Source: an uncultured Cardiobacteriaceae bacterium
GTDB lineage: Bacteria; Pseudomonadota; Gammaproteobacteria; Cardiobacteriales; Cardiobacteriaceae
Direction: 5' to 3'
Assembly (NCBI GenBank): GCA_963532425.1
Contig: CAUSKK010000013.1
Coordinates: 3,931-67,930, forward strand
DNA length: 64,000 bases
Shown here in pieces: positions 6,994 through 61,855 of this stretch (the stretch's first letter is position 1; the number at the start of each line of letters is the position of its first letter). The translations under genes were made by a program, and so were the position numbers. The notes under the pieces were generated by a model. It worked only from the letters and a program-made list of their open reading frames with translations. It did no database searches and was not told the DNA's origin.

Positions 6994-7755
6994 GAAGCGC
7001 TTCGTTTTCGCCCACATTGTGGAGGGAAGCGCTTCATCAAAATCCGACTCCCCAGCCCGAAGCGCTCCCCTTTTTAGTACCCACCGCCGGACGGCGAAGC
7101 GCTTCCCCCTAGTCTAGGCAGCTGGGCTAGCTGTCCAAAGCGCTTCGGTTCGGCCGGCCTTTTCTTCCGAAGGAAGCGGTGGTTCCACTGCCTTGCCGCT
7201 CGCTGCGCTGAAGCGCTTCCCTCCCCTTAAATCTGGGCCCGCCAGAGGAAGCGCTTCGCTCTCACCGCCTGCTCCCTCTGAAATATTCTCGGCCCGGGCT
7301 TGAAACGACCGTTTGATTATCTTGGCCGATTCAGCGGGCTGGGCCGGGCGAAGCGCTTCGGGTGAAATGGCCTTTTCTTTCGCGATTGCGCCCCGTCGGA
7401 CGTTTTTACGAAGCGCTTCGGCTTGAACCGTCCCTTTGGTAGCTAAAGAAAGCGCTTCGCTCGGTTCTCACTCGTTTGAATTGGCGGTGGGAAACGCTCC
7501 CCTTTCCCAGCCCTAGCAAAGCGAAGCGCTTCGGCGTTTTGGCCCTTTGGGAAACGAAGCGCTCCCCTCGGCCCGGGTTTGGCCGTTCGATTGTCCCGAC
7601 TCATTTAGTGGGATTAGCAGGCTGAAGCGCTTCTGTCTGGACTTTCAGACCGAAGCGCTTCGGTTTCGCGGCCGAGGTTTAGAGGATGGGAAGGGGGCGG
7701 GAACCGGTGAAACGCTCATCCTGCCGATAGCGATTTAGCCAACCGAAGCGCTCCT
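6994..7755. repeat. array A of GAAGCGCTTC palindromes (10 exact plus 5 one-mismatch copies)
   Basis: Manual scan. Copies are spaced ~25-100 bp apart in a non-coding 3'-3' gap. ORF-track peptides here are KRF/EALR/SAS artefacts of the palindrome. Confidence 0.9.
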
Positions 7756-7908
7756 CTCTTTCAAATTAGACTGGAATTTTAAGGAAGCACTCGGCGGGCA
7801 GCGGGACGGCGGCCCGGGAGCAAAAGAGAGTTTTTTCCCATGACGTTTTCCCACATGAAAAAAGATTTTTAGCCATTGCTCCCTATTTCGGGGGGCCAAA
7901 ATGGGGCT

Positions 7909-8103
7909 CTAGTCCGTCGGTTCCTGTTTGTCCCAGCTCAGGTCCAGTTTCTTCTTCCGCCGCTGTTTAAGAGTGATGAGTGCCGGCGGCAGTTCCCGTA
8001 GCCGGTTCATGTCCAAATCCAGGGTTTCCAGATTCTCCAAATTGCCCAGTTCCGGCGGTACTTCCTGCAGCTGGTTACCACTCAGAATCGGATATCCAGA
8101 TAT
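7909..8103 (-). pseudogene. out-of-frame 3' continuation of the LRR gene
   Basis: A minus-strand frame open from 8103 to TAG at 7909-7911 reads 'LSGNQLQEVPPELGNLENLETLDLDMNRLRELPPALITLKQRRKKKLDLSWDKQEPTD*'. This is two more canonical LRRs plus a tail, shifted by -1 relative to 8082..9503. Confidence 0.8.
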
Positions 8104-9503
8104 CTAAGGTCTCGCAAATTCCCCAGTTCCGGCGGCAGCTGGGTCAGAGCATTGCATCTCAGGGTAAGCCACTCAAGCTCCGGTAAATTACCCAATTCCA
8201 ATGGCAGCTCCCGTAGTTCATTGCTTTCCAGATGTAACCATTTCAGTTGCTTCAAGCCCCCCAGCTCCGGCGGCAGCTGGGTCAGAGCGTTATGGCCTAA
8301 ATAGAGATGCTCCAATTGGTCGAGCTGACCCAGCGTTGGCGGTAGCTCCCGTAGTCTGTTCCAATCCAATTTTAGCGTTTTCAGGTTTCGTAAATTCCCC
8401 AGTGCCGGCGGTAATTTCTCTAGGCCAACATTCTCCAAACTCAAAAATTTCAATTTATGTAAATTGACCAGCTCCGGGGGCAGCTGCTTCAGCGCTTTGC
8501 AATAATCCAGACGAAGGGTCTCCAAGCAAGGGAGCTGACCCATGACCGGCGGCAGCTCCTGCAGCGGATTGCTTTGCAAGTACAACTCTGTCAAGTGTTC
8601 CAGTTTGGCCAGACTCTCCGGCAGAAAAACGATAGCGTTGTGGGAAAGGTTAAGGATTTTTAGATTCTGCAGCTCGCTAATTTCCGGCGGTAGATAGGTG
8701 ATAACTCGCTGTTTGTCGGCTTCATCGTCATCCGGGTCGGCTATATATTTTAGGTTGAGCTCCCTGAGCCGCTGCAGGGCGACCCGGTCGCGGGGGAACT
8801 TGTCCCAGCTGATGTTAAATTCATCGGCCCAGTCGTAGAGGGCCTGGAAATTCTCATCGTCTTCTCGAAACAAATCCTTGTCGTCCACCTTAATATCTGG
8901 CAGCCAGTTGCTCATACGGTGAAGCACTTTAATCCCCTCCGGCAGCTGCTCCAGCGGATTGGCACGTAGGTCGAGAGTAAGTCTGGCCCGCTTGGGCAGC
9001 TCGGCAATTCCAGCCGGCAGCCGGGTCAGCCGGTTGTTCGGCAGCAGGATATTTTCCAGCCGGGGCAGCCGGGGGCCAAAAATGGCCGGCAGTTCGACGA
9101 GCTCGTTGTGGCCGAGGTCGAGGGTCTCCAGGCGCAGCAGGCCGACCAGCTCTGGTGGCAGCCGGCCTAGCCGGTTATGGTTCAGGCGGAGAACCTGCAG
9201 CCGGTGCAACTGGCCAATTTCGGCGGGGATTTCCGTCAGCCGGTTATTGCTTACATCCAGCTCGGTCAGGGTTGACAGCTGGCCCAGTTCCGCCGGCAGG
9301 CTTTCCAAACCGCTATGGCTGAGGTTCAGCGTGCGCAGTTTCTTGAGCGCGGCCAGTTCCGGCGGCAGCGACGCCAGGACCAGGCCGGATAAATCCAAGA
9401 CGGCCAGCTTTTCCAGGGCCTCCGGGTCGCGGGGGAAGCGCTCGGCGGGCAAGCCAGCGGCATCGGCCCAGGAGCAGAGACTATCAAACGAAGCTTTTTT
9501 CAT
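8082..9503 (-). CDS. leucine-rich repeat protein, two LRR modules (C-terminally truncated by frameshift)
   Basis: 473 aa with ~23-residue repeats 'L..L..L.L..N.L..LP.E(L/I)G.L'. Each module follows a cap of the form 'W-AD....(W)..FPRD..AL..L..L(D/N)L'. Confidence 0.9.
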   Translation of the reverse strand: MKKASFDSLCSWADAAGLPAERFPRDPEALEKLAVLDLSGLVLASLPPELAALKKLRTLNLSHSGLESLPAELGQLSTLTELDVSNNRLTEIPAEIGQLHRLQVLRLNHNRLGRLPPELVGLLRLETLDLGHNELVELPAIFGPRLPRLENILLPNNRLTRLPAGIAELPKRARLTLDLRANPLEQLPEGIKVLHRMSNWLPDIKVDDKDLFREDDENFQALYDWADEFNISWDKFPRDRVALQRLRELNLKYIADPDDDEADKQRVITYLPPEISELQNLKILNLSHNAIVFLPESLAKLEHLTELYLQSNPLQELPPVMGQLPCLETLRLDYCKALKQLPPELVNLHKLKFLSLENVGLEKLPPALGNLRNLKTLKLDWNRLRELPPTLGQLDQLEHLYLGHNALTQLPPELGGLKQLKWLHLESNELRELPLELGNLPELEWLTLRCNALTQLPPELGNLRDLRYLDIRF

Positions 9504-9605: not shown

Positions 9606-10685
9606 TTAGAGCATGTCCCGGGCGGCGCGGTAGAGGTCCTTCCAGTCGTCGCGGCCCTTGACCACCGTTTCCAGATACTCCTTCCAGACGATGGCGTCCT
9701 GTACCGGGTCCTTGACCACGGCACCGAGCAGACCGGCCATGAGGTCATCGGCCCCAAGGGCACCGTCGCCGAAGTAGGCACTCAGCGCCAGCCCGTTATT
9801 CACCACGGAAATGGCCTCGGCGGTGCTCAGGGTGCCGCTGGGGCTTTTCAGCTTGGTTTTGCGGTCGCTGGTCAGGCCGGCGCGCAGTTCGCGGAAGATG
9901 GTAACGATGCGGCGAATTTCCGCCAGGGCCGGCTTTTCCGCCGGCAGTTTCATGGTTTCCTCGTACTGTTCCACCCGGCTGCGCACAATCTCCACCTCCT
10001 CGTCCAGGGACGCCGGCAGCGGCAGTATCACCGTGTTAAAGCGCCGTTTCAGCGCGCTGGACAGGTCATTGACGCCCTTGTCGCGGTTGTTGGCGGTGGC
10101 GATGAGGTTGAAACCGCGAATGGCCTGCACCTCCTTATTCAGCTCGGGAATGGGCAAGGTTTTTTCCGAAAGAATGGTAATCAGCGTGTCCTGCACATCG
10201 GAGCCGATGCGGGTCAACTCCTCCACCCGGGCAATCTTGCCGTCCTTCATGGCCCGCATCACCGGCGTTTCCACCAGCGCGCTTTCGCTGGGGCCCTTGG
10301 CGAGCAGCTCGGCATAGTTCCAGCCGTAGCGCACGGCCTCCTCGCCGGTGCCGGCGGTGCCCTGGACCACCAGCGTGCTATCGCCGGCGACGGCGGCGCT
10401 GATGTGCTCGCTGACCCAGCTCTTCGCCGTGCCGGGCAGACCGTAGAGCAGCAGGGCCCGGTCGGTGGCCAGGGTGGCGACGGCGATTTCCATCAGCCGG
10501 CGATTGCCGATGTACTTGGGTTTAATTTGGAATTTATTGGCCAGCTTATCGCCCATGAGATAGCTCACCACCGACTGGGGCGACAGCTGCCAATTCTCGG
10601 GGATGGGGTGTTTTTCCTGTTTTTTCAGCTGGGCCAGTTCCTCAGCAAATTGCTGTTCGGCGTGTTGTCTCAGAATGTCAGACAT
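9606..10685 (-). CDS. MoxR/YehL-like AAA+ ATPase
   Basis: Walker A 'LLYGLPGTAKS', Walker B region 'IARVEELTR', 'ATANNRD' and 'LKRRF'. The 'MSDILRQ' ATG at 10685 overlaps the upstream stop (ATGTCTGA). Confidence 0.85.
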   Translation of the reverse strand: MSDILRQHAEQQFAEELAQLKKQEKHPIPENWQLSPQSVVSYLMGDKLANKFQIKPKYIGNRRLMEIAVATLATDRALLLYGLPGTAKSWVSEHISAAVAGDSTLVVQGTAGTGEEAVRYGWNYAELLAKGPSESALVETPVMRAMKDGKIARVEELTRIGSDVQDTLITILSEKTLPIPELNKEVQAIRGFNLIATANNRDKGVNDLSSALKRRFNTVILPLPASLDEEVEIVRSRVEQYEETMKLPAEKPALAEIRRIVTIFRELRAGLTSDRKTKLKSPSGTLSTAEAISVVNNGLALSAYFGDGALGADDLMAGLLGAVVKDPVQDAIVWKEYLETVVKGRDDWKDLYRAARDML

Positions 10686-12102
10686 GGTTTTTTCCTTGGT
10701 TAAAAAAATCGTCAAGCACTTGCAGTGCGTCATATTCGGCCCACAGCGGGGCCAGCGCCGGCCAATCGGCCAGCCGCCGCCGCCACTGGCGAAAAATCGG
10801 GCCCCGGTGCAGCCGGGCCGCCAGTTCCACCGCCGCCCCGGGGGCCGCCCCCAGCCGCAGCCAGCGGTGCACCATCAGCAGGGCGTAGTAGGGCCCCCAG
10901 ACCATTTCCGGCGTCAGCATGGCCGGCAAATCGTCGCGGGCCCGGCGGCCGGCGGCGGGCAGGGCTTCCAGCTGGGCCCGGGTGAACGGCGCCCCGGCGC
11001 CCAGCACCCGCTCCGGCTCGTTTAACAGGGTCAGCAGCCCCGGCACCCGGGCCGTCCAGTGCCGCACCAGGGCGTCCTGGCTGGCCGGCGGCAGCGTGCC
11101 GAAAACCCGGAGCAGGTCGCGGTTGGTGAAGAAATCCGGGGCTGTGGCGAAATAGGGCACGTGCAGGCTCGGCGGCAGCTGGCCGAGCCAGCGGTAGAAA
11201 CGGGCGGGGCTGGGGAAAATTTGGTCGCGCAGGCCCGGGTCGCGCTGCCAGAGCTGAATCAGACTAGGAATGTCCGGGCAGTGGCAGAGGGCCAGCCAGG
11301 TGGCCGGGTCCCTGACCCGGGCGGCCAGAATGCCGATGGCGTTGGGTCGGCCCAGGCCCGGTTCCGAGCGAAGCGCTTCCGGTGGCAGGGCCGCCACACG
11401 GAAGCCCACCTCGGCCCGCCGGCCGAGCCACCGGGCCAGCCCGGCCCAGCGGCGGGGCGGGTCGTAGTGGAGGGCAGCGCGTAGCCAGCGTTGCTGGCGG
11501 GCCGGGTCAAGCAGACCCACTTCGGCCCCCAGGCAGCGTTTCAGCGTCGCCCGTTCGGCCCGGTCGAGCCGGGGCCCGAGCCGCCGCAGCCAGCGCCGGT
11601 CGGCCCGGCTGAAAAAGCGGGCACTGGCAATGAGCCCAATCTGGCGCGGCTGGCCGGCCGACCGCTGCCGTTGCCAGAGGGCGTGCAGGGCCCGGCGCCA
11701 GCGGTCGCCATCGAGCCGGTGCAAAGCCCGGAGCTCGGCGAAACGTTGCGGCCGGGTCAAACCCGCGAGGCCGGCCAACGCCAGCGCCGCCGTCGACCGG
11801 GCCCGTTCCCCCCGCCGCTCGCGCTCCGGCGCCGCTAGCAGCGGCAGAAAAAGGCCGGGCCGCCGGTGAAGCGCTTCGCCGGGGCGGAAATGGAGCGTCT
11901 GCCAGTCGGCGGCGGTCAGCCGGTAGCGGTTACTACGCAGCAGCCGGGCGCCGAGCAGGCCAATGGCCGACCAGCCCCGGACCGCCTGCCAGCGCTGCCA
12001 GGCGACGCGCAGCGGCTCCGGCAGGGGTGGGGGCTCTGCTCGGCACCCGGCCACCGGGGGAAGCGCTTCGGTGCCGACGGCCCGGGGGCGGGAGGCATTC
12101 AT
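10678..12102 (-). CDS. hypothetical 474-aa Arg/Trp/Leu-rich protein (operon member, no recognisable motif)
   Basis: Long ORF that is start/stop-coupled to both neighbours. Contains in-frame copies of the palindrome as E-A-L. I recognise no domain. Confidence 0.6.
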   Translation of the reverse strand: MNASRPRAVGTEALPPVAGCRAEPPPLPEPLRVAWQRWQAVRGWSAIGLLGARLLRSNRYRLTAADWQTLHFRPGEALHRRPGLFLPLLAAPERERRGERARSTAALALAGLAGLTRPQRFAELRALHRLDGDRWRRALHALWQRQRSAGQPRQIGLIASARFFSRADRRWLRRLGPRLDRAERATLKRCLGAEVGLLDPARQQRWLRAALHYDPPRRWAGLARWLGRRAEVGFRVAALPPEALRSEPGLGRPNAIGILAARVRDPATWLALCHCPDIPSLIQLWQRDPGLRDQIFPSPARFYRWLGQLPPSLHVPYFATAPDFFTNRDLLRVFGTLPPASQDALVRHWTARVPGLLTLLNEPERVLGAGAPFTRAQLEALPAAGRRARDDLPAMLTPEMVWGPYYALLMVHRWLRLGAAPGAAVELAARLHRGPIFRQWRRRLADWPALAPLWAEYDALQVLDDFFNQGKNHV

Positions 12103-12110: not shown

Positions 12111-13793
12111 CTAGGCCTTCGCGGCCAGGGCGTCATCGAATTGCAGGCGCGATTCGTAGAAGGCCAGCACCCGGCCGAAGCTGTCGAGCAGCTGGCGCTC
12201 CTGCATCATTTGGCGCACCTGGGCGCTGTTACCCCCGCCGACCTCGGCCAGGTCGTCGGCGGGCTGGGGCGCCGGCGGCTGTTCCCGGAAGGCCACCGCC
12301 AGGGCGCGCAGGGTCGGGCTGGCGCTCAGCCGTAGGGCCGCATAACGCTGCTGGCTGTGCTGGTAATAGAAATAACTGTCGCAGTGGCGAACGGTATAGA
12401 GAACCAGCAGCGAATAGCGTTCACCCCAGGGCTCGCCGGTGTCGTCATTGAAATCCGTCAGCAGGCTAAAGTCCATATTTTCCCAGCGCCGGGCCGCCGC
12501 CGAGTGGCCGAGGAAAAACTCCTCGGGCCGCTGGAAGAACAGCTTCAGGTGGGGATTGTGTTCGGCCTGGGCGGCCAGCACCCGTTCACGCTGGGCGCTG
12601 TTGAGCTGCTTCAGGAGCCACAGGTTATTGTCCTTGTAGTGGCCCATCGTCGGCTGCCGGCTGAGATATTCCACCAGAAAGGCCGTGCCCAGTTCGCTGA
12701 GCCAGCCGTGGTAGCTCTGGCTGCTCGTCAGCCAGCCGTGTTCAAAATAGCGCTGGGCCAGCGGCGTGCGAATCAGAGTTTCGGCCAGTTCGGCCACGTC
12801 CGCGCTGTGGGTCATTTCCAGCCAGAATTCCAGCCGGTGGACGCGGTGAATCAGCTGGCGGCGCAGGAAGTTATCGTCGCTCTCATTTTTATCGCTGCTG
12901 ATTTCCTCCAGTCCCAGCGCCTTCATCTCCTTGCTGAAGGCCAGCGGCGTCATGTGCCAACCGGCCTTGTCATGGCTGAGCGTCTGCCGAAGCCAGCCCT
13001 CCAGCGCCCGGGTGCTGGCGCTGTCCGGCAGCCGGGCCAGCAGAAGGCCGGCCGTCTCGCGCACGTTGCTGGAACGGTCCTTCAGGCAGGCTTCGATGAA
13101 GGGAGCGTCGGCCGGACTAAGGTTGTTCCGCAGCAGCTCCAGATAGGCCAGCCGGTGATTGGCCGGGGCCCCCTTCCAAATCTCCTCCACCCGGAGCCGG
13201 GCCGCCTCGGGATTTTCCCGGCGCAGGCTGCTGAGATGGGCGCGGCGACCGCTGAAATCCAGCTCCAGCAGCGGGTCGGCGTCCGGGGCCGGCGTGGTGG
13301 GGGCGCTGCCCAGCTCGGTGCGCAGGTCGTTCGGCAGTTCGGCGCCAAGCTGGGTCAGCAGCCAGCGGCCCCGGTCGTCCAGCAGGTCGAGCCGACCCTT
13401 GAGCCGTTTCACTTCGCCGCGCAGGAGCAGCCGTTGCAGGCTGGCTTCGTCCAGACAATGGCCACTCCGTTTCAGGGTCGCCAGGGCGTAATCGAGATAG
13501 TCGCGCTCGTCCTGTTCGAGCCAGGCGGTCAGCACCCGTCGGGCCGGGGCCGGCAGCACCCGGCCGTCCGGGGCCGGGGCCGGTGGTATCGGCTGCCAAT
13601 CATCCTGATGGGTTTCCAGCCGGGCGCCGCTGCGGTCGGAGCCGTAGGCCAGGGCCAGCAGGTCATAGGCCCGGGGCAGCGCTTCGGCCGGGGGCAGCCG
13701 GGCCACGGCTTCGGCCAGCGGGGGCGGGGGCGGCGGCAGGGGACCGGCGTCGAGGCCCATCAGGGCAGCATTGAATAGTTGGGGATTAAGCAT
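12111..13793 (-). CDS. hypothetical 561-aa helical protein, possibly DUF5691-like
   Basis: ATG 13793 ('MLNPQLFNAALMG') overlaps the SWIM gene stop (ATGCTTAA). 'LKDRSSNVRETAGLLLARLPDS' is HEAT-like. The DUF5691 assignment is from memory of SWIM-adjacent genes only. Confidence 0.6.
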   Translation of the reverse strand: MLNPQLFNAALMGLDAGPLPPPPPPLAEAVARLPPAEALPRAYDLLALAYGSDRSGARLETHQDDWQPIPPAPAPDGRVLPAPARRVLTAWLEQDERDYLDYALATLKRSGHCLDEASLQRLLLRGEVKRLKGRLDLLDDRGRWLLTQLGAELPNDLRTELGSAPTTPAPDADPLLELDFSGRRAHLSSLRRENPEAARLRVEEIWKGAPANHRLAYLELLRNNLSPADAPFIEACLKDRSSNVRETAGLLLARLPDSASTRALEGWLRQTLSHDKAGWHMTPLAFSKEMKALGLEEISSDKNESDDNFLRRQLIHRVHRLEFWLEMTHSADVAELAETLIRTPLAQRYFEHGWLTSSQSYHGWLSELGTAFLVEYLSRQPTMGHYKDNNLWLLKQLNSAQRERVLAAQAEHNPHLKLFFQRPEEFFLGHSAAARRWENMDFSLLTDFNDDTGEPWGERYSLLVLYTVRHCDSYFYYQHSQQRYAALRLSASPTLRALAVAFREQPPAPQPADDLAEVGGGNSAQVRQMMQERQLLDSFGRVLAFYESRLQFDDALAAKA

Positions 13794-16520: not shown

Positions 16521-16524
16521 ATAA

Positions 16525-16960
16525 AGAAGCGGTTGCTGCGCGGCGGTGCCGCTTGCCGCACTTCTTCGCCACTGCGTGGCTTCGAAGCGGTTGCTTCGCG
16601 GCGGTGCCGCTTGCTGCACTTCTTCGCCACTACGTGGCTCCGAAGCGCTTCGTTGGAAGCGCTTCGCTAACGCCCCCATTTTCAGCAACTGGGCCAGGGC
16701 CCGCTCTAGCCATTCCAGAATCGAAGCGCTCCCCCGGGGCCGCTTCCCAACCGAAGCGCTTCGGTCTAACCGGCCGAGCCGGTCGAAGCGGTGGCCGTTG
16801 CTAGGCAGCTACTCGACGAGGCCTCGTTGGCTTGCTGCATTTCCCTCTTCGCTAAATAACGAAGCCCTTCGGTTCGATGTTTAGGAGGCCGAAGCGGTTG
16901 CTGCGCGGCGTTGCCGCTTGCTGCGCTTCCTCGCCACTGCGTGGCTCCGAAGCGCTCCCC
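16525..16960. repeat. array B: 58-bp element (2 tandem copies plus 1 dispersed) mixed with GAAGCGCTTC copies
   Basis: Units at 16525-16582, 16583-16640 and 16891-16948 share 'GAAGCGGTTGCTGCGCGGCGGTGCCGCTTGC.GCACTTCTTCGCCACTGCGTGGCT'. Three exact and five variant palindromes. Confidence 0.85.
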
Positions 16961-16976
16961 TTCCCAGCAACCGGCA

Positions 16977-17000
16977 TAAAAAAACCGCCCGGAGGCGGTT
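16977..17000 (-). terminator. intrinsic terminator after the gldG/DUF4340 pair
   Basis: The minus strand reads AACCGCC-TCCG-GGCGGTT followed by T7, just after the stop at 17007. Confidence 0.75.
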
Positions 17001-17006
17001 CAGGGG

Positions 17007-20351: not shown

Positions 20352-20357
20352 CCCCAG

Positions 20358-20442: not shown

Positions 20443-20901
20443 GAAGCGCTTCGCTGGAACGATTAAATCCTGTCGCCGAGAGGGAAGCGCTCCCCCCGCC
20501 GGGCCGGATGGCCACACCAACTCTAAAAAGGGGAAGCGCTTCGTTTCCGGGGGCCAGCGACCGAAGCGCTTCTTCCGTCCCAAGGTTTTCCCACGACCCC
20601 GGCCCGATGGCTTAAACCGAAGCGCTTCGTTGTAAAAGACCCGGCGGGAGCGAAGCGCTCCCTCTCTAAGCCACGAGTTCGTTCCCTAGCTCAGCCATTG
20701 GCCATTCCAAAATCGAAGCGCTTCCCCCGGCTCGAGCTTTAAAACGCCGAAGCGCTTCGTTCTACCGGCCCATTCCCCTTCGCCTGCCGGCGGCCGAGCC
20801 GGAAGCGCTTCCTTCTGGGAAGCCAGTTAAAAGGGTCAGAGCGTGAGGGCATGCTAGTCGAAGCGCTTCAGCCGGGAAGTTTGCCCGGGGGGAAGCGCTT
20901 C
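20443..20901. repeat. array C of GAAGCGCTTC palindromes (9 exact plus 2 variant)
   Basis: Manual scan of the non-coding 3'-3' gap between gmk and the oxidoreductase gene. Confidence 0.9.
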
Positions 20902-20935
20902 ATTAATACAAAAGGGCGGCCGAACGGACGGGCCC

Positions 20936-30324: not shown

Positions 30325-30353
30325 GCCGGGTTTCAGCACAACCCGGCTTTTTT
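30325..30353 (+). terminator. intrinsic terminator after the Sel1 gene
   Basis: GCCGGGT-(9 nt)-ACCCGGC followed by T6. Confidence 0.75.
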
Positions 30354-30408: not shown

Positions 30409-31824
30409 GAGCGCTTCTAGCGAAGCGCTTGGTTTTGAATCTCCAGTCGAAGCGCTTCCCCTTGGCAGCCCAAATAAAACCGAAGCGCTTCGGTGTTCGG
30501 TGCAGGGGAAAGCAGGAAAGCCGGGCCGGGGCGAAATGGCCAACGCTGAAAACCGGTCGAAATCAACGAAGCGCTTCGGTTCCAGAATCAGCCCCGGCAC
30601 GATTCGGCGCACCGCTTCGGTGCAGCGCTCCCCCGCGTGGCTGGCCCCATTGACCGAAGCGCTTCGTTAGAACGCCAGCACCCGGCGAATGATTTCCTTC
30701 AATCCCCAAACCCCGATTGGGGCCGTAGCGTTAAACCCCGACTCGGGGGTCTTTGCTTCTACGAACGAAGCGCTTGGCTATAAAGCAAGAGCCTATCGGA
30801 CGAAAAACCCGAGCCCGCCCGTCGAAGCGCTTCTTCGGTGCAGGGGAAAGCCGGGCCGGGGTGAAATGGCCAACGCTGAAAACCGGTCGAAATCAACGAA
30901 GCGCTTCGGTCGCCGACTCGGGCCTGCTTTTTTGCCGCGCCCGGCCAGTTAAATCGAAGCGCTTCACTGGGCCCTCTGTTTCCCCTGGCTTTTCTGGCCG
31001 GCCCGCCCGAAGCGCTTCGGTTTAATCAGCCAACGGCTAGCGCCGCTTTCTCCCGCCGTCTCTTCGGCTGAAGCGCTTGGCTCGAAGAAGCCCCTAGGAC
31101 TCAAGCGCTTCGTTGCTTTCGAAAAAGGGAGCGCTTCCGGTGAAGCCAAATCAAAGAGGAAGCGCTTCCCGGCCTGGCCAACCGACCGCCCTTGGCGGCA
31201 CCAACCGAAGGACGGTGAACCGCAGCGAAGTAGCAAGCCGCTGGTGAAGCGCTTCTCTCATTAGTTCAGTGCGCCAGGCCGGAAGGTTTCCGCCGAATGA
31301 AGCGCTTCGGACGGAAATAAACGGTGGAGCATGCTTCGTTCGGTCGCTTTCCCATCCTGTCCAGCCAGCCGCCGGAAAGGGGGAAGCGCTTCGTTTTTCT
31401 TGGCTTCCGAGACCGAAGCGCTTCGGCTTCGGCGCCCATAGAAGGAAGCGCTTCGGTTTTGGAGGCTGGAAAAGGGGAATGCTTTGAGTAGGACGATTAA
31501 AACGAAGCGCTTCGGTTTGAGGGAGAAAAGGGGGAGCGCTTCGAGGGTCGTTCTAAACGAAGCGCTTCGCTTTGAGAAGGGACGCGGCTTCACCACCGGA
31601 AGCGCTTCGGCTCACGGGAGGAAGCGGGCCGAGGTCGATGTTTTCAAAGCCACCGAAGCGCTTCGTTATTTTTGGAAAAGGGGAGCGCTTCATTCGGGGA
31701 AGACGGGAAAGGAGGAAGCGCTTCGGTCGCGCCGGTGGATTTTTCCCCGGCCCGGCGGCGGCCATTGCCAGCCATCGGAAGGAAGCGCTTCATTCTGGAA
31801 AAGCCGGCAAAAAGGAAGCGCTTC
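30409..31824. repeat. array D of GAAGCGCTTC palindromes (21 exact plus at least 8 variant)
   Basis: Manual scan. Contains a ~90-100 bp internal duplication (30481-30580 vs 30833-30920). Confidence 0.9.
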
Positions 31825-34176: not shown

Positions 34177-34225
34177 GTGGGAAGTCCTGAAAAAGGCGAA
34201 GCGCTTCGGCCGAAGCGCTCCCGGT

Positions 34226-38132: not shown

Positions 38133-39938
38133 ATGACGACATTTCGTAGCCACTACTGCGCCCAGGTCAATGAGAGCCTGATTGGCGAAACCCTGCAGAT
38201 TGCCGGCTGGGCCCGGCGCCGCCGCGACCACGGCGGGGTGATTTTCATCGACCTGCGCGACCGTTCCGGCCTGGTGCAGGTGGTCATCGACCCGGACACC
38301 GCCGAGGCCTTCGCCCGGGCCGAGCAGGTGCGCAATGAATACTGTCTCAGCATTCGCGGCCGGGTGCGCGCCCGGCCGGCCGGCACCGAGAATGCCGAAC
38401 TGACCAGCGGCAAGGTGGAGCTGCTGGCGCTGGAACTGGAGATTCTCTCCAAGTCCGAAGCGCTTCCCTTCCAGCTCGACGAGGACAATGTTTCCGAGGA
38501 AATCCGCCTGAAATACCGCACCATCGACCTGCGCCGCGAATCCATGCAGGCCAATTTGCTGCTGCGCGCCCGGGTGGCCTCGGCCCTGCGCCGCTATCTG
38601 GACGAGCACGGCTTCCTGGACATCGAAACGCCGATGCTGACCCGGGCCACCCCCGAGGGCGCCCGCGACTATCTGGTGCCGTCGCGCACCCACCCGGGCA
38701 AATTCTTCGCCCTGCCCCAGTCGCCCCAGCTGTTCAAGCAGCTGCTGATGATGAGCGGCTTCGACCGCTACTATCAAATCGTGCGCTGCTTCCGCGACGA
38801 GGATTTGCGCGCCGACCGCCAGCCGGAATTCACCCAGCTGGATATTGAGACCTCCTTCCTCGACGAGGAGGAAATCATGGCCCTGATGGAAACCATGATT
38901 CGCGGCGTCTTCAAGGAACAGCTCGGCGTTGAGCTCGGGCCCTTCCCGCGTCTGCCCTACAGCGAGGCCATGCAGCGCTTCGGTTCGGACAAGCCCGATT
39001 TGCGCATTCCGCTGGAAATGGTGGACGTGGCCGATTTGGTGCGCGACAGCAATTTCAAAGTCTTTGCCAGCGTTGCCAGCGCGCCCAACCACCGGGTGGT
39101 GGCCCTGAGGGTGCCCAACGGCGGCCAGCTGACCCGCAAGGAAATCGACGATTACACCGCCTACGTCGGCCGCTACGGCGCCAAGGGCCTGGCCTATATC
39201 AAGGTCAATGACGCCGGCAGCGTGGCCGGTCTGCAGTCGCCCATCGTCAAAAACCTGACCCGGGCCGGCGGCGAGGAGGGCGCGGTGGCCCTGGAAATCG
39301 TCCAGCGGCTCGGTGCCCAGAACGGCGATTTAATCTTCTTCGGCGCCGACCGGGCCAAAATCGTCAATGACGCCATCGGTGCCCTGCGCATCAAGCTGGG
39401 CCTGGATTTGAACCTGCTCACCGGCCCCTGGGCGCCGCTGTGGGTGGTGGATTTCCCCATGTTTGAATATGACGAGCAGGACGGCCGCTATTACTCCACC
39501 CACCACCCCTTCACCCAGCCGAAGGTGGACAACCTCGACGACCTGGACAGCAAGCCCGGCGAGGTGCTGTCCCGGGCCTATGACATGGTGCTGAACGGCA
39601 CGGAAATTGGCGGCGGCTCCATCCGGATTCACCGGGAGGACATGCAGGAGCGCATCTTCAAGTCCCTGGGCATCGGCCCCGAGGAGGCCCAGGAGAAATT
39701 CGGCTTCCTGCTGACGGCGCTGAAATTCGGCTGCCCGCCCCATGGCGGCATGGCCTTCGGCCTCGACCGGCTAATCATGCTGATGGCCGGCGCCAAGTCC
39801 ATTCGCGACGTGATGGCCTTCCCGAAAACCCAGACGGCCCAGGACCCGCTTACCGACGCCCCGGCCGAGGTCAGCGATGCGCAGCTGAAGGAGTTGCACA
39901 TTCGTCGCGCTCCTTCTCCCCTGAAAGGCGAGAAGTAG
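38133..39938 (+). CDS. aspS: aspartate--tRNA ligase (last ~11 codons lie in the first unit of a tandem repeat)
   Basis: 601 aa. 'GW...RRDHGG.IFIDLRD', class II motifs '[18 protein letters not shown]' and 'GGGSIRIH', 'GLDRL'. Confidence 0.96.
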
Positions 39939-40148: not shown

Positions 40149-41806
40149 GAAGCGCTTCCCCCTAAACCCTGGGCTCGAAGCGCTTCGCTCTGAACAACCT
40201 TAAAAGAAGCGCTTCGGTTTCTCCGGCCGCCGGGAACGAAGCGCTTCGTTGAAAGTCCTATTTTCCCAGTCAGAAGCGCTTTGCTCTAACCCCCGAGGCC
40301 GAAGCGCTCCCTTCTTCTAAGACAGCAGAAACACTTCCCCGGGCATCAAACCGAAGCACTTCGGTTGCTAGCGGCAAGAGGCGGAAAAAAGCATCGGGGA
40401 AGCGCTTTACTCTGGAAACCCACAAAAGCCGGAAGCACTTCACCGCTGAAAGTCCAAAATAAAGCCACTGGGCCGGCGGGCCGAAGCGCTCCCCTTTTCC
40501 CAAAGAATGAATAAAGGTTCCGGCTTAAAGCGCTTCGTTGAGAAATGTCCTTCAGAAAAGAAGCGCTTCCTGGGGAACCCCCGGCCCGGGCCATTACTTC
40601 CACAGACGACGAAGGCGAAGCGCTTCGGTTTCTCTGGCCGCCGGGAACGAAGCGCTTCCTTCTTTAACCGAGGCCAGCACAGCAATAGAACGTTTTGCAC
40701 TGGCTGCCTCACCCTTGGCAGTGATAAAAGCCCCGGCCCGGTTTTGGTTGGAAGGGAAAGAAGCGCTTCGCCTCTGGGCTTTAAAACGCTTCCTCGGCCC
40801 GAAGCGCTTCGATTTAATCGCCGACGCTGGCCGGGTCGGCAATTTATCCCCCGCCAGAAACTGAAAAAAACCCGGGCCGTCGGGGCGCCGCTATTTCCCA
40901 GCCGTCCGGGCGAAGCGCTTCGCTAAAAACGACTCGGGCCGGATAGCTAAAAACAACCGACGCCGGGTCGGGAAAACCACTGGCCCCGGCCGCAGCGCTT
41001 CGGCTGCCAGCGGCCGGAAGCCGAAAAAACCACCGGGGAAGCGCTTTACTCTGGAAACCCACAAAAGCCGGAAGCGCTTCGCCGTTGAAAGCCTCAGAAG
41101 GCCACTGGGCCGGGGGAACGAAGCGCTTTGAGTTCGGCCCGAAGAGAGGCTCTCTAGCTGAAAGCCGGTGAAAAACGAAGCGCTTCGGTGGAGCTTACTG
41201 CGAAAGTAAAGCCACGACCGCCCGCGCCCGGCCGGGGCCAATCGTGTTTTTGTGAACAGGGGAAGCGCTTCCAACGGGAAAGCCAGCCAGGGGACGAAGC
41301 GCTTCCCCTTCTGGCCGCAACTGATGAATAGGACTAGCCGGGCCAAGGGCCGCCGCCGAGCAATGCCGAAGCGCTTCCCTCGGGAAAGCCGCATTCAAAG
41401 TGAGCCGGCGGGCCGGGGCGTCATCGTTCCGGCGGCGAAGCGCTTCCTTCTCTAAATCTAGGGTCGGCCCGGCAATAAACCCTTTTGCGCCCGCTGTTTC
41501 GGTCAAAACGACTCGGGCCGTAGGAGCACTTCTCCCGGCTCGCAAACCGAAGCGCTTCATTAATTGGCCGGCGCCGGCTAAAGACGAGAAGAAGCGCTTC
41601 CCCCGGCGAAAAGGAAAGCCGGCCCCGGTCGCAGCGCTTCGGTTACAGCGTCGGTTCGGACGTTTTCCCGGGGCCCCGGGGCCGCGCTTTTTATCTGGCC
41701 AGCGGGACGAACGGCCGTCGCGCTTCCCCTTTTCCCAAAAGACAAATCAAGAGGCCCCGGCCCGAAGCGCTTCGGTTTTAGCTCGTGCGATGGTCCGAAG
41801 CGCTTC
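40149..41806. repeat. array E of GAAGCGCTTC palindromes (20 exact plus more than 10 variant)
   Basis: Manual scan. Contains a ~140-bp internal duplication (40351-40492 vs 40991-41130) and a ~50-bp one (40206-40250 vs 40617-40660). Confidence 0.9.
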
Positions 41807-49979: not shown

Positions 49980-50074
49980 TAAATCAAATTAAAAAACTAT
50001 TTCTTGAAATAAAAAATATATTTATTAGCCAAGAATTAGATATAAGTATTTCTTTTTCAGAAATTTTATTACGG

Positions 50075-51379: not shown

Positions 51380-51466
51380 TCTAAATTATAGCAATTAATT
51401 TCAAATTTTAATTCTGTTTTATGAGCTAGCCAGCGAGAAATAAGTTGGCGTCATTCTGCCAGGCTA

Positions 51467-51838: not shown

Positions 51839-51877
51839 ATACAAACGCTAGAAGCGTTTTTAGCGTCGGTAAATGCC

Positions 51878-53953: not shown

Positions 53954-54413
53954 GAAGCGCTTCAACCGGAGCAGATTTAGAAAGGGGGAGCGCTTCGTTC
54001 TGGAACGCGGCTCCCGGCCGAGAAAACCAACTGGAGCAAATCCAGCCGAAGCGCTTCGGTTTTAGCCGGCTCGGGCCGGGGGGAAACGGCTTCAGAGGGG
54101 AAGCGCTTCGTTCTAGAGAGCCCAGCTTCGGCCCCGGCGCCCAGAAAAGCCATTGCCAACGAAGCGCTTCGGTTTAGCGCTGTAGATTGCTTAGGAGGGA
54201 GCGCTTCGACTGGTGGGGCCAATGGAGTGAAGCGCTTCGTTTGGGGAGACGGGAAACCCCGGCCCGATGGGGAACGGGGAGCGCTTCGGCAACCCCATTG
54301 GAGAGGAAGCGCTTCCCCAGAACGAAGCGCTTCGGTTTGAACCCAAAGAAGGAAGCGCTTCCGGCCGGCCCCGGGCAACGAAGGCTTCCGGCCGGCCCAG
54401 GGGGAAGCGCTTC
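53954..54413. repeat. array F of GAAGCGCTTC palindromes (9 exact plus 4 variant)
   Basis: Manual scan of the 3'-3' gap before ahpF. Confidence 0.9.
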
Positions 54414-54420: not shown

Positions 54421-54446
54421 AAAAAAAACGCCGCCCGGCGGCGGCG
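54421..54446 (-). terminator. intrinsic terminator after ahpF
   Basis: The minus strand reads CGCCGCC-GCCG-GGCGGCG followed by T8. Confidence 0.8.
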
Positions 54447-54452
54447 CGGGGG

Positions 54453-56009
54453 TTAGCCCTGGCGTTGCAAATAGTCAAAGGCGCTGAGGGCGGCCTTGGC
54501 GCCCTCGCCCATGGCGATGATGATTTGCTTATAGGGAACGGTGCTCACGTCGCCGGCGGCAAAGAGGCCGGGAATGTTGGTTTCACACTTGGCGTTGATG
54601 ACCACCTCTCCGGCCGGCGTCCGTTCCACCTCGGCGCCGAGGAAATCGCCGTTCGGCACCAGGCCAATCTGGACGAAGACCCCGGCCAGGGGCAGCGACC
54701 GTAGCTGCTGGCTGGCCCGGTCGAGGTAGTCGATGCGGCTGACGGTGCCGTTTTCACTGTGAATGGCCTGCACCGCCGCCTCGGTGATAACGCGGATATT
54801 GGCGCGCCGGCCCAGCTGTTCCACCAGCACTTTGTCGGCCTTCAGCGTCGGCTGGAATTCCAGCAGGGTTACGCTGCCCACCATATTGGCCAGGTCCAGC
54901 GCCGCCTCCACGCCGGAGTTGCCGCCGCCGACCACGGCAATGTCCTTGCCCTTGAAGAAGGGGCCGTCGCAGTGGGGGCAGAAGGCCACGCCGCTGCCGA
55001 TGTTTTCCCGTTCGCCGGGCACGCCCAGTTCCCGCCATTTGGCGCCGCTGGCGACGATGACCGTGCGGCTTTCCAGCACCTCGCCGCTGTTCAGGGTGAG
55101 GCGGAAGCCCGGCCCTAGCGTTTCCAGCTTGGCCACGCGCAGGTTCTCGCGGCGGTTGATGTTATAGGCCTCGAGGTGGCGCTGGAGGTTCTGGGCCAGC
55201 TCGGTGCCGGTGGTTTTGACCGTGGCGATGAGGTTTTCAATGTCCACCGTGTCCTTGACCTGGCCGCCGATGCGGTCGGCCACTAGCGCCACCTTCAGGC
55301 CCTTGCGCGCCGCATAGATGGCCGCCGAGGCTCCGGCCGGGCCGCCGCCAATGACCACCACGTCCTGCAGGGGAAGCGCTTCGTCCGGAGCGCCGGCCGC
55401 CAGCTCCGGCTGCCGTTCCAGCAGCTTGGCCACCAGCGTGGCCGGGTCAATCTTGCCGTTGGCGAAGGATTCGCCGTTGAGGAAGACCGCCGGCACGCCC
55501 TGGATATTGCGGCGCTCGATTTCCTCGGGATAGAGGCCGCCGTCAATCATTTCGCTGCTAATCAGAGGGTTAAGCAGGGCGAACTGGTTCAGGGTCTGCA
55601 CCACGTCCGGGCAGTTGTGGCAGGAGAGGGAGACGAAAGTCTCAAAGCGCAGCGGCGTCCGGACGGCCCTGATGAGCTTCTGAATGCCCGCGTCCAGCTT
55701 GGGCGGGTGGCCGCCGGCCTGGAGCAGGGCCAGTATCAGCGAGGAAAACTCGTGGCCGCCGGGAATGCCGCTGAAGACGATGCCGGTGGGCTCGCCGTCG
55801 ACGATGAGGGCAAAGCTCAGCGGCGAGCGCAGGGGCAGGGCCGCCGCCGTAACGAAGAGGTGTTCCGAGGTGCTGGCCAGCTGCTGGAGAAACTGTTCCA
55901 AGGCCGGCCGCTGGGGGTGTTCGCCCGGAGCCAGAGCCAGGCTGACATCTTTCTGGAGCTTGGCCAGATGGCCGCGCACCGCCGCTAGCATTTCATTATC
56001 TAAAAGCAT
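54453..56009 (-). CDS. ahpF: alkyl hydroperoxide reductase subunit F
   Basis: 518 aa. 'CHNCPDVV' and 'CPHCDGPFF' redox centres. 'VIGGGPAG' and 'VVGGGNSG' Rossmann motifs. Confidence 0.96.
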
Positions 56010-56104
56010 TTTTCTATTTCCTTTGATTATTTAAATGGTAAAGGGGAAAAAAGAAGCGCCGAAGCGCTTCAAGGGTTTATCACAGAGGTATTTATTGAGG
56101 AAAT

Positions 56105-58652: not shown

Positions 58653-59325
58653 GCGGCTACGGCCGGGCCTGCGCTTCTGGCACTGGTTTCTGTCCGGCCT
58701 CAGCCTGCTGCTGCTGGCGCCGCTGCTGCTCTACGGCTGGATTAGCTGGCGGGCGGCCCCCTACCAGTACGACGATTTGGAGGCGCTGCCGGCGCGCTCG
58801 GTGGGGCTGGTGCTGGGGACGAGCAAATATCTGGGCCACGGCCAAATCAACCTCTACTACCGGGGGCGCATCGAGGCCGCCCTGGCCCTCTACCGGGCCG
58901 GCAAGGTGCGCTATTTCATCGTCAGCGGCGATAACCGCAGCGTCTCCTACAACGAGCCCCGGCAGATGCGCCTGGATTTAATCGCCGGCGGCGTACCGGC
59001 CCATCGTATCCAGCCGGACTTTGCCGGCCTGCGCACCCTGGATAGCGTGTTGCGCGCCGCCGCCATCTTCGGCCAGGACGACTACATCATCATCAGCCAG
59101 CCCTTCCACAATGCCCGCGCCCTCTGGCTCGCCCGCGCCCGGGGCCAGCATCCCATCGCCTTCAACGCCCCCAACCCCCGGCGCTGGCGCCACCGGCTGA
59201 AAACCGAACTGCGCGAGGTCGGCGCCCGGCTCAAGGCCCTCTGGGATTTGCTCAGCCAGAAGCAGGCCCGCCACTACGGCCCGCCCATCGACTTCCCCCC
59301 GCCGCCGGAGCCCGACGCCCCATGA
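58633..59325 (+). CDS. sanA: SanA/YdcF-like (DUF218) membrane protein
   Basis: N-terminal TM then 'VLGTSKY.....N.YY..RI.AA..LY.AGKV...IVSGDN....YNEP..M...L...GVP...I..D.AG.RT.DS'. ATG 58633 chosen to minimise overlap with the HAD gene. Confidence 0.8.
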   Translation: MCCRLFRRLRPGLRFWHWFLSGLSLLLLAPLLLYGWISWRAAPYQYDDLEALPARSVGLVLGTSKYLGHGQINLYYRGRIEAALALYRAGKVRYFIVSGDNRSVSYNEPRQMRLDLIAGGVPAHRIQPDFAGLRTLDSVLRAAAIFGQDDYIIISQPFHNARALWLARARGQHPIAFNAPNPRRWRHRLKTELREVGARLKALWDLLSQKQARHYGPPIDFPPPPEPDAP

Positions 59326-60095
59326 ACCGCCGCGACTGGGGCCAGGCCCTGACCCTGGGCGCCCTGCTGGCCCTGGTGCTGGGCTACGGGTTGGCGCTGC
59401 TGCAGCCGGCCGGCGACCGTTTCGGGCCCTGGCTGCGGGCGATGATGACGCTGGTGCCGCTGCTGCTGCTGCTGCCCTTTGTCTGGCGCCGGGTGCCGAA
59501 GGCCTATCAGATTCTGGCCCTGCTGGCGCCCTGGCATTTCTTCGTCGGCGGGGTGATTTGGCTCTGGGGGGAGCCGGCCGCCGGCGCTTATTTCTGCCTG
59601 GGGGCGCTGCTGCTCCAGACCGGCACCATTCTGCACAACTACCGGCCGCGCCCACCCCGGCTACGCCTGCCGGCGCTGGTGCCGCTGGGCGCCGACGACC
59701 TGGCCCTGCTGGTGAGCCGCGACGATGCCCGCTACCGCGCCTGGGCCGAGGTCTGGGCCGGGGCCAGCTATGAGGGCCCGGGGCCGGGCCTGGGCGAACT
59801 GCTGGCCGACGATGTCTGGGCCACGGCGCCGGCCGGAGTGCTGCGCCTGGAGGACCGGGCCGGCCGCAACTGGTTTCGCCTGCCCCTGACGCCCAGCCAA
59901 CGGCAGATTTTGACCCGCCAGGGCCGGCTGCTGCTGCTGCCCCTGCCGAAGGAGGCCGCCACCCCAGCCCGGGCCGAGGCCCTGGCCACCCTCCCCCCCG
60001 ACGATGATGTCGCGCTGGCCCACTGGCTCAGCGCCGAAGGCCTGGAGGGGCTGGGCCTGACCTTCCGACCGACGGAAAGCGCTGCCGAACGCTAG
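59322..60095 (+). CDS. hypothetical membrane protein (257 aa)
   Basis: ATGA overlap with the sanA stop. Four hydrophobic segments followed by a soluble C-terminal half. No motif recognised. Confidence 0.6.
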   Translation: MNRRDWGQALTLGALLALVLGYGLALLQPAGDRFGPWLRAMMTLVPLLLLLPFVWRRVPKAYQILALLAPWHFFVGGVIWLWGEPAAGAYFCLGALLLQTGTILHNYRPRPPRLRLPALVPLGADDLALLVSRDDARYRAWAEVWAGASYEGPGPGLGELLADDVWATAPAGVLRLEDRAGRNWFRLPLTPSQRQILTRQGRLLLLPLPKEAATPARAEALATLPPDDDVALAHWLSAEGLEGLGLTFRPTESAAER

Positions 60096-60106
60096 TCCGC
60101 CGACCC

Positions 60107-61855
60107 GAAGCGCTTCGGACTCCGTAGAAGTCTGAAACGCAGCGAGCGACAGGCAAGCCACCGCTTCAAGCTCTACGGAAGCGCAGCGGCGGGCGAGCCA
60201 ACGGCGAGCACCCCAGCAACTGCTTCGCCCGCCGGCCCAATTAAGGAAGCGCTTCGTTCGTCCGCTGCCCCGCTGGCCGACCGAAAAGAGTGCCACCCCG
60301 AAGCGCTTCATTGGGAACGCCTTTCCCAGTCCGAAGCGCTTCCCCTTTTCCCGTTTTTCCTGAGCGAAGCGCTTCCCTTGGGTGCCGCTATCCCCAATGG
60401 CCCGAAGCCGGCATTGCTATTCCCTGTCGGACTTCAGAACGAAGCGCTCCCCCTGGTTAGAACCTAGGAAGCGCTTCGTTCGTTCACGGCCCCGAGGTTC
60501 AACCAAAAGGAGAGCCGCCCCGAAGCGCTTCAGTTTAGTCCCCCGAGGCCGAATTTATTTTTCCCGGCCTCTGAGGTCGAAGCGCTTCCCTATTTGAGCC
60601 GGTAATGATTGAACCGGGGCCAACCGGCCGAAGCGCTTCGCCCGCCTAACCCATAAGGAAACGCTTCCCTTGGGTGCCGCTATCCCCAATGACCCGAAAC
60701 CGGCATTGCTATTCCTTGCCAGACTTCAGAACGAAGCGCTCCCTCTGGCTAGAACCCAGGAAGCGCTTCATTCCGACTAGCGAAGCGCTTCCCTTTTGCC
60801 GGGCCGGTGATTATTTATGTCAGACCGAAGCGCTTCGTTGAGATTAGCCTTCGAGGGAGAAGCGCTTCCGGCTGGAGATTCAGAACGAAGCGCTTCCTCC
60901 TCCGGCTGTTAAAACCGAAACGCTTCGGCCCGGGCCGGGGCTAATACGACCGTTGAACGGTAGCGCTTCCTTCCCAACTTGGCCAATGGCGAAGCGCTTC
61001 GGCCCGGCCAGTTGCTCTAAACCGAAGCGCTCCCCGTTTTCCCAGCCGGAAGCGCTTCAGTTTTTTTTGAGCCGGCGGGGCGAAGCGCTTCCTGCCAATG
61101 GCTAGAGCTGCCACTGGGCCGGGGAAAAATCTACAGGCTAAGGCCGAAGCGCTTCATTCCTAGGATTTGGCGAAGCGCTCCCCTCTGTTGTCCTAGCCAG
61201 TCGAAGCGCTTCGCTGGGAAAAAACCTTGGGAAGGAAGCGCTTCCGTTGGATACGGCAGAAGGGAGCGCTTCGATTTAGAGCGGGGTCGAAGTAGAACGA
61301 AGCGCTTCGTTCTAACGGCCTGGCCAGAAGGACTTTAGACCAGCGGGCCGATTTATCTGGCTGCGCCGGGGGAAGCGCTTCGGTTCTGGCGTCCCAGTCC
61401 AGAGGGGGCGTTGCTCGTCCGGCAAACGCGCGGCGCTGAAGCGCTTCAGTTTTAAACGGCAGATTTTCGGGAAGCGCTTGGGCTTCCGGAAATCGCTCAA
61501 GGGGGGAGCGCTTCGTTTCCGGAGGCCAGATAAACCGAAGCGCTTCGTTTCGGCGGTTCGCAGAGATTAAGGAATCGCTTTAAGGGAGAACGCGCTTCAT
61601 TTTCCAACGGCTTTTAATCATCACGAGCCCCGGCCCGTCAGAACCAAAGCCCTTCGGCCGCTGGCCAGGTGTTGGCCGGGCCGATGATTTAAAGAGGGAG
61701 CGCTTCGCTTCGGCCTCTTAGGTTTGCTTTCTAGGCTGAAGCGCTTCGTTCGGCGGTAGAAGAAAACGGCTGGACATTGGCTTGGCACTGGGAGCGAAGC
61801 GCTTCGGCTCCAGGGGGATTGAACAATCCGCAAACGGCCGGCGGGGAAGCGCTTC
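60107..61855. repeat. array G of GAAGCGCTTC palindromes (27 exact plus more than 12 variant)
   Basis: Manual scan. Contains a ~118-bp internal duplication (60362-60480 vs 60657-60775). Confidence 0.9.

Follow-up and report, generated by a model that had tools for sequence, protein, structure and literature searches.

The analysed DNA is a stretch of 64,000 nucleotides (here called the window) from contig CAUSKK010000013.1 of an uncultured Cardiobacteriaceae bacterium, in which a perfect 10-base palindrome, GAAGCGCTTC, is stacked into seven arrays located between genes. The window contains 123 exact copies of this word, compared with 0.18 expected from dinucleotide-preserving shuffles. The word is present throughout the genome, genes included, and its arrays reach 1.7 kb. 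Judged by AspS, the host is a Cardiobacteriaceae-like gammaproteobacterium (75-81% identity to Cardiobacteriaceae metagenome-assembled genomes [MAGs], Suttonella and Dichelobacter), and the species has been seen in metagenomes only.

The genes of the window were mapped using GC content at the third codon position (GC3) and codon scores, and those at the junctions were checked with Pfam. Clustering of the GAAGCGCTTC positions recovered all seven arrays of the original prediction, an earlier reading of this DNA, each of them in a spacer between genes whose 3' ends face each other (Table 1). Together, these convergent spacers span 7.9 kb, or 12% of the window, in agreement with the earlier estimate of ~7 kb and 11%; they contain 99 exact copies (12.5 per kb) and 42 copies with one mismatch. 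The copies of array 7 are quasi-periodic, with gaps of ~25-36 bp. The other exact copies are distributed as follows: (i) 5 in 1.9 kb of co-directional spacers, six of which hold single or paired copies, (ii) 2 in 0.8 kb of divergent spacers, with no more than one copy in each, as had been claimed, and (iii) 17 in 53.8 kb within gene coordinates, including a terminator pair (63035/63051) that overlaps the 3' end of an amidase gene. The exact copy at 6946 is placed within the final 40 bases of gene 6166-6984. Pfam matches were obtained for 13 of the 14 array-flanking genes (none for 17007-17552); the match of 59322-60095 is sub-threshold only, and 53631-53942 is called by codon score alone. Open reading frames (ORFs) inside the arrays (40891-41394 and 16546-16884) were rejected, their codon scores being negative, and the former has no Pfam match. 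An Rfam search gave no match in the arrays and identified one tRNA only.

Table 1. Coordinates of the palindrome arrays and of related features (window numbering unless a relative is named; >< denotes facing 3' ends)
Feature	Coordinates	Strand	Copies of the word	Flanking genes and remarks
Array 1	6994..7661		10 exact, 5 one-mismatch	convergent spacer 6984><7909; hydrolase gene / leucine-rich repeat (LRR) gene remnant; flanks by Pfam
Array 2 (small)	16642..16762		3 exact, 3 one-mismatch	spacer 16521-17006; DoxX gene / 17007-17552(-)
Array 3	20443..20901		9 exact	junction 20351><20936; gmk(+) / flavodoxin-like gene(-)
Array 4	30449..31824		21 exact, 7 one-mismatch	junction 30304><31873; Sel1 gene(+) / helix-turn-helix (HTH) gene(-)
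Array 5	40149..41806		20 exact, 11 one-mismatch	junction 39938><41882; aspS(+) / DUF6683 gene(-)
Array 6	53954..54413		9 exact	small ORF 53631-53942(+) / ahpF-like gene 54453-56009(-)
Array 7	60107..61855		27 exact, 11 one-mismatch	junction 60095><61937; membrane-protein gene(+) / rluD-like gene(-)
In-frame copy in aspS	38457..38466	+	1 exact	GAA GCG CTT C, peptide EALP
Canonical terminator of Sel1 gene	30325..30347	+		before array 4; tool-predicted
Canonical terminator	20357-20376	+		stop codon-side of array; tool-predicted
Canonical terminator	16982-17001	-		stop codon-side of array; tool-predicted
Canonical terminator	54428-54447	-		stop codon-side of array; tool-predicted
Terminator	40106-40134	+		before array 5; by eye
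Terminator	41837-41862	-		before array 5; by eye
Two-copy hairpin with T-run	63033..63062	+	copies at 63035 and 63051	directly after tRNA 62955-63028; faces amidase 3' end
Hairpin followed by T-run	34198..34221	-	1 exact, 1 one-mismatch	co-directional junction
Similar terminator-like hairpin	56053-56070	-		
Hairpin element of L091 (ACGGACGGGCGCTTCCCCTGTATGTA...TACATACAGGGGAAGCGCCCGTCCGT)	3935-4045, 11825-11965, 13672-13810, 20029-20170			L091 numbering
AAGCGCTT pairs of L218	5277/5308, 9134/9165, 12673/12704, 16099/16132			L218 numbering

The original prediction held that the arrays occupy every convergent junction and no promoter region. The seven spacers and the nearly copy-free divergent spacers of the window agree with this rule, but even here the convergent junction 51838><51878, a 39-bp gap bordering an AT-rich island, has zero copies, and that between the tRNA 62955-63028(+) and the amidase gene 63031-63600(-) has a two-copy hairpin only. 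A presumed convergent overlap at 1664 was rejected: 1534-2316(+) encodes a cytidylate kinase, and this junction is therefore co-directional. For a wider tabulation of array position against gene orientation, a three-copy pattern scan of metagenome contigs provided ~617 kb of the same species (assemblies ERZ773090 and ERZ1033833), which were reduced to 520 kb by removal of window overlaps and duplicates. Genes were predicted with a codon log-odds caller trained on the window, and at least 4 copies were counted as an array. Arrays were found at 20 of 36 convergent junctions (56%), 18 of 247 co-directional junctions (7%) and 4 of 43 divergent junctions (9%). The difference between convergent and co-directional junctions (Fisher p=4e-11) is stable at stricter gene-score thresholds. 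The enrichment is thus strong but not exclusive, as 22 of the 42 arrays are non-convergent (48, 43 and 9% are convergent, co-directional and divergent, respectively) and 16 of the 36 convergent junctions (44%) are array-free. Pfam confirmed the flanks of four large co-directional arrays (EPSP synthase to DAO, malic enzyme to PepN, TonB receptor to DUF4395, and Slam to LeuRS), as well as those of a divergent, promoter-bearing spacer with 6 copies (L176, 3003-3286), located between genes for an Na/H exchanger and PpiD. The convergent enrichment is real, but the absolute wording of the rule, in both its halves, is an artefact of the small window sample.

Several other scan results were discarded. 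A two-copy pattern scan of the genome collection returned chance pairs in many GC-rich taxa, with no arrays among the matches listed. Exactly periodic JGI matches to the three-copy pattern (L094, L098, L142, L175, L186, L199 and others) proved to be ordinary tandem repeats of unrelated organisms. Viral contigs contained no arrays of GAAGCGCTTC or of the variant CAAAGCGCTTTG described below. Many contigs of the species begin or end inside arrays (L133, L134, L136, L156, L163, L179, L202 and L204, among others); the arrays therefore break short-read assemblies, and array counts obtained from MAGs will be too low.

Analysis of the word and its surroundings indicated that the repeated unit is small. 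C is favoured 5' and G 3' of GAAGCGCTTC, within a weakly purine-rich 5' flank and a weakly pyrimidine-rich 3' flank, and one-mismatch variants are changed at the outer positions 1, 2, 9 and 10. In 683 kb, 1729 of 2848 AGCGCT hexamers (61%) lie inside the full 10-mer. The flanks of a single copy are no more complementary than shuffled pairings and show neither co-variation nor palindromic extension, and the unit is therefore the bare palindrome; some units have longer, decayed palindromic flanks (e.g., AGAAC-word-GTTCT). Flanks of neighbouring copies likewise show no excess of complementarity, the observed value being slightly below expectation. For the array spacers, folding does not exceed that of shuffled versions, nor is there any additional self-complementarity. 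The start-to-start distances have sharp peaks at 33, then 32, 28 and 18 bp, followed by a broad second mode near 56-62 bp, and no 10.5-bp helical signal was found in the copy spacings. The spacer sequences are nearly all unique (106 of 110 with a 23-nt gap). Duplication, within one array or from one array to another, is seen for a few segments, and a shared spacer unit occurs once in inverted orientation.

The word is also strongly over-represented inside genes. Trimmed interior coding sequence (262 kb) contains 123 copies (~0.47 per kb), compared with 4.2 expected after synonymous-codon shuffling (~30-fold enrichment) and 0.85 after codon-order shuffling (~145-fold). All three frames are used, which gives the peptides EAL[PR] (56%), [GR]SAS (24%) and xKRF (20%). 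The conserved EALP of aspS (GC3 0.86) is encoded with the rare codons GAA and CTT, where the relative L091 has GAG GCG CTG; such copies have thus originated by substitutions that run counter to codon preference. A second site in aspS is not the same in the two strains compared. In a comparison of arrays between strains, 10 of 940 palindrome positions differ (1.06%), compared with 265 of 6466 positions (4.1%) in the spacers of the same arrays (Fisher p=2.5e-7), while gene divergence is ~2%. The palindromes of the arrays therefore change about four times more slowly than the spacers, which behave as neutral DNA, and the word is maintained: copies arise by point substitution genome-wide and are then kept by purifying selection or biased transmission. 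Three exact copies are carried by ORF 10678-12102 (474 aa, in a region of 74% GC), whose sole detectable homologue is a 94% identical copy from the same species, with a precomputed record that contains no Pfam domain.

Array length was compared between close strains, as the original prediction had recommended. An independent assembly (L001) carries an array identical to array 3. The sister strain L092 (98% AspS identity) has arrays at both homologous junctions, and their lengths differ from those of the window: the spacer of array 4 measures 1831 bp in L092 vs 1568 bp, and that of array 5 measures 2307 vs 1943 bp. These differences are due to indels and segmental duplications whose ends lie at copies of the word, while the genes are ~98% identical at the DNA level.

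Among more distant relatives, the distribution of the word is patchy. The closest of them, L091 (88% AspS identity), has zero GAAGCGCTTC in 21.8 kb and carries a perfect ~66-bp hairpin element at all four convergent junctions of the locus (Table 1). The hairpin arms contain GGGGAAGCGC and GCGCTTCCCC, resembling flanked halves of GAAGCGCTTC, and the element looks like a bidirectional terminator or a repetitive extragenic palindromic (REP)-like element. In L093 (81% AspS identity, 44% GC), the core AAGCGCTT occurs 61 times in 21.8 kb, mostly as CAAAGCGCTTTG and in dispersed form, with 42 copies in coding sequence vs 2.5 after synonymous shuffling; this locus has no arrays, and one AAGCGCTT pair is located at a convergent junction. 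The MAG GCA_030529365.1 (L218, 78% AspS identity) contains 12 AAGCGCTT in 17.5 kb, mainly as intergenic pairs 31-33 bp apart, placed within a larger AT-rich repeat that includes TGAGAAAATTT and GGTAAAAAATCAC; once, AAGCGCTT is the centre of a 46-bp inverted repeat. L091, L214-L217, Suttonella and Dichelobacter have 0-2 AAGCGCTT each. The core is also abundant in GCA_030525785.1 and close to background in GCA_019218315.1. We therefore consider the core a family-level feature with lineage-specific variants. The tetranucleotide GATC is nearly absent from the same-species loci (44 vs ~2113 expected in 617 kb), with GGATCC found 0, CGATCG 3 and TGATCA 4 times in 683 kb. It occurs once per 21.8 kb in L091 and 43-76 times per 21.8 kb in L214-L216, and is also depleted in L093, which suggests GATC-directed restriction pressure in this sub-lineage.

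None of the papers in the library searched describes these words as a bacterial repeat, and the GAAGCGCTTC element looks new, with a placement that is ordinary for bacterial intergenic repeats. Its behaviour resembles that of the highly iterated palindrome HIP1 and its placement that of REPs; the array form and the register have been described for neither. The features shared with HIP1 are a short perfect palindrome, an excess of orders of magnitude (15-300-fold for HIP1; PMC5861425), presence in coding and non-coding DNA, lineage-variable abundance, variant words and presumed reading at the level of DNA. As in HIP1, sites of the word are more conserved between genomes than their neutral neighbours, and selection on HIP1 has been argued from the same signatures (PMC5861425). 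The two differ in sequence and host, HIP1 being GCGATCGC of cyanobacteria and the present words GAAGCGCTTC/AAGCGCTT of Gammaproteobacteria with only the three CGATCG mentioned above. HIP1-like palindromes contain the site of an orphan DNA methyltransferase. GAAGCGCTTC contains AGCGCT/GCGC; a tblastn search with one Dcm-like protein found no match in the 680 kb sampled, which represent part of the genome, and is uninformative. HIP1 is not known to form arrays of kilobase length, with a register of 32-33 bp, in 3'-3' spacers.

Escherichia coli REPs are ~60% convergent, 40% tandem and 1% divergent, and occupy ~30% of convergent spacers (bioRxiv 10.64898/2026.03.23.713779); a permissive argument for their placement was made earlier (PMC1525189). 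The GAAGCGCTTC arrays follow the same order, convergent > tandem >> divergent (20, 18 and 4), and the positional pattern is therefore ordinary. Like the REPs and bacterial interspersed mosaic elements (BIMEs) of E. coli and Pseudomonas, they are able to form hairpins, are located at terminators, differ among strains and are recombination hot spots. However, REPs are imperfect ~35-bp hairpins with a conserved tetranucleotide, tied to REP-associated tyrosine transposases (RAYTs) and strictly extragenic, whereas the unit described here, a bare palindrome of 10 bp, is abundant in genes as well (123 in 262 kb; 17 in the window). DNA uptake sequences (DUS) of Neisseriaceae and uptake signal sequences (USS) of Pasteurellaceae are similar in being words of 10-12 bp, present about once per kb or more, with tolerated gene frames, inverted pairs at terminators and clade-specific variants, but they are non-palindromic and form no arrays. 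Operators of LacI-family regulators are also even palindromes with a central CG (GAAGCGCTTC fits AAnCGnTT), and the L093 variant CAAAGCGCTTTG forms part of the AglR motif tcAAAGCGCTTTga (PMC4052901). Such operators number few per genome and lie 30-140 bp upstream of gene starts, unlike the thousands of copies found here mostly behind genes, and the resemblance may serve only as a lead to the kind of reader protein. A CRISPR was rejected: the repeat has 10 bp (not 23-55), recurs at irregular distances (18-200 bp) and is found at dozens of loci.

We interpret GAAGCGCTTC as a HIP1-like highly iterated palindrome, i.e., a DNA-level recognition word for a putative two-fold symmetric DNA-binding or DNA-modifying protein, and regard its convergent location as permissive; the probability of this interpretation is, in our estimation, about 0.5. 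Copies are gained by substitution everywhere, and their gain would be unopposed in DNA outside transcription units, which would make the convergent location permissive and not instructive. Such DNA would be found mainly between the terminators of convergent genes, less often in the gap between a terminator and the following promoter, and rarely in a divergent spacer. The spacers would then grow into arrays (0.3-2.2 kb, with a preferred register of 32-33 bp) through duplication and through unequal recombination among the copies, and this growth would extend to most units. The reader is presumed to be dimeric, and the force acting on the word may be selection, a methylation or repair bias, or a drive connected with uptake or recombination. 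The arrays may, in addition, act as platforms on which a protein binds at multiple sites. The original prediction had also offered silent DNA, acting as a protein platform or simply tolerating expansion; with the DNA-level constraint, the preferred spacing and the REP-like permissive positions, this part of it fits the data better than termination does. What it had missed is the hyper-abundance of the word in genes, its variants in related lineages and the non-exclusive character of the positional rule.

Several observations weigh against this interpretation. Gene conversion or drive, and not function, could account for the lower substitution rate of the copies. The preferred distances of 18, 28 and 33 bp have no common helical phase, and the 32-33 bp register, formed with unrelated spacer sequences, is what a purely permissive model explains least; it is mainly because of this register that protein platforms are considered as well. 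A pair distance of 31-33 bp is seen again in L218. Some source must have supplied the additional array DNA, but a recognisable relative exists for only ~6-9 of 108 window spacer units, and duplication is therefore documented for a minority only. Co-directional arrays start at a median of 32 bp past the upstream stop codon and end 75 bp before the next start, a displacement with only p=0.07. The survey contigs were selected for holding arrays and the gene caller was home-made, so the absolute occupancy figures are rough. Finally, no reader protein, methyltransferase or binding data have been identified.

The units could instead be mobile elements of the REP/BIME type, copied into 3' intergenic DNA by a RAYT-like (Y1/HUH) transposase and acting as terminators or mRNA stabilisers in 3' untranslated regions. 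The positional distribution, almost identical to that of E. coli REPs, is in line with this possibility, as are the BIME-like clustering of copies, the few spacer units common to different arrays (one of them inverted), the decayed palindromic flanks mentioned above and the classical 66-bp hairpin of L091 at convergent junctions. On the other hand, the unit is a perfect, loopless 10-bp palindrome whose flanks do not co-vary, there is no GTAG-type tetranucleotide, the spacers between copies are almost all unique, and ~0.47 in-frame gene copies per kb originating by substitution would be impossible for transposition. No transposase was noticed among the annotated window genes, although no dedicated search was made. 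A pure REP/RAYT model is thus contradicted and we consider mobile elements an unlikely explanation overall, albeit a possible origin of some units. Another alternative is a DNA uptake or self-recognition word under molecular drive, with the arrays representing its run-away accumulation in neutral DNA; competent cells would favour DNA with the word during uptake or recombination, and copy-rich alleles would therefore spread. The family includes a naturally transformable species, Dichelobacter nodosus. A DUS/USS-like density, gene copies limited to a few tolerated frames and the formation of terminator hairpins by copy pairs agree with such a role, as do lineage-specific variants built on one core, resembling the DUS variants of Neisseriaceae (PMC3630211), and the recent linking of HIP1 to transformation (bioRxiv 10.1101/2024.09.10.611283). 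Known uptake sequences are, however, asymmetric and do not form arrays, the closest relative L091 lacks GAAGCGCTTC in its 21.8 kb, and neither the palindromic symmetry nor the 32-33 bp register is explained. A tblastn search for pilin, PilB/C/D and ComEA was negative, but it covered ~680 kb, part of the genome, without a positive control and is uninformative. We consider an uptake word quite improbable.

The original prediction further suggested that the arrays are strand-symmetric termination or insulation zones, in which hairpins of the array RNA would stop or buffer converging RNA polymerases. Any two GAAGCGCTTC copies may indeed form a 10-bp stem (~-19 kcal/mol), the RNA of array 20352-20935 folds better than shuffled sequences (z = -4.5), the two-copy hairpins with a T-run are terminator-like (Table 1), and convergent junctions are strongly enriched in arrays. 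Against this, at 6 of the 14 gene ends that flank arrays in the window, the gene has a terminator hairpin of its own between the stop codon and the array (four predicted by the tool and two found by eye), which confirms the six sites of ordinary terminators proposed earlier. Since, moreover, about half of the arrays are non-convergent and 44% of convergent junctions are array-free, arrays are neither needed for termination nor specific for convergent genes. Copies inside genes cannot be terminators, the array spacers have no T-runs and no C-rich strand bias, and in L091, which lacks the word, one hairpin is present at each convergent junction. A C-rich (Rho-loading-like) composition of array halves in the sense of the adjacent gene seemed suggestive in three window arrays and was rejected on the larger sample (p=0.07 for 27 convergent and p=0.43 for 18 co-directional arrays). 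Dedicated termination zones are the least supported of the alternatives and, in our opinion, very unlikely.

Other features of the window were also distinguished. An AT-rich island (49500-51900; GC 25-44%) includes ORF 49524-49979 and ORF 50075-51379, which matches DUF2971 weakly. The island contains zero GAAGCGCTTC, is probably recently acquired DNA and forms with its edge the one convergent junction that is free of copies. A 311-bp direct repeat (51462-51772 and 53421-53729; 85% identity) overlaps the small ORFs 51467-51838 and 53291-53942 and may represent either paralogous small genes or a duplication bracketing the region 51.8-53.4 kb. Between the last codons of aspS and the terminator 40106-40134, there are 3.7 tandem copies of a 48-bp unit (39903-40081; 95% identity), which is unrelated to the palindrome. 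A second repeat family, with a 58-bp unit (GAAGCGGTTGCTGCGC...), flanks array 2 (16526-16647 and 16890-16956) and is also present inside the L092 version of array 4 (~2040-2140). The LRR gene next to array 1 (8082-9503, minus strand) has a low GC content (52%), and the reading of its final repeats shifts to a different frame at 7909-8040; the gene is thus probably of foreign origin and broken by a frameshift or a stop codon.

A broader version of the HIP1-like interpretation, which we consider doubtful, treats the words as family-level palindromic genome tags (core AAGCGCTT, variants GAAGCGCTTC and CAAAGCGCTTTG) bound by a dimeric reader, which in this species may have run away into multi-site arrays of 32-33 bp register, comprising about a tenth of the window DNA. 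These would be protein-loading or self-recognition platforms for transformation, recombination bias or nucleoid organisation. If true, HIP1 would have a counterpart in Gammaproteobacteria, one that takes a new form, the array. As the arrays differ between strains whose genes are ~98% identical, they could serve as strain markers. We regard the finding as being of moderate to high interest, because two properties absent for HIP1 make a reader protein tractable both computationally and experimentally: variants in relatives, which permit phylogenetic profiling for the reader gene, and dense, fixed-register arrays, which would be ideal baits for DNA affinity purification sequencing (DAP-seq), pull-down and methylome work. 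GAAGCGCTTC would be a highly iterated palindrome outside cyanobacteria, with the same signs of constraint on DNA for which HIP1 has long been a puzzle.

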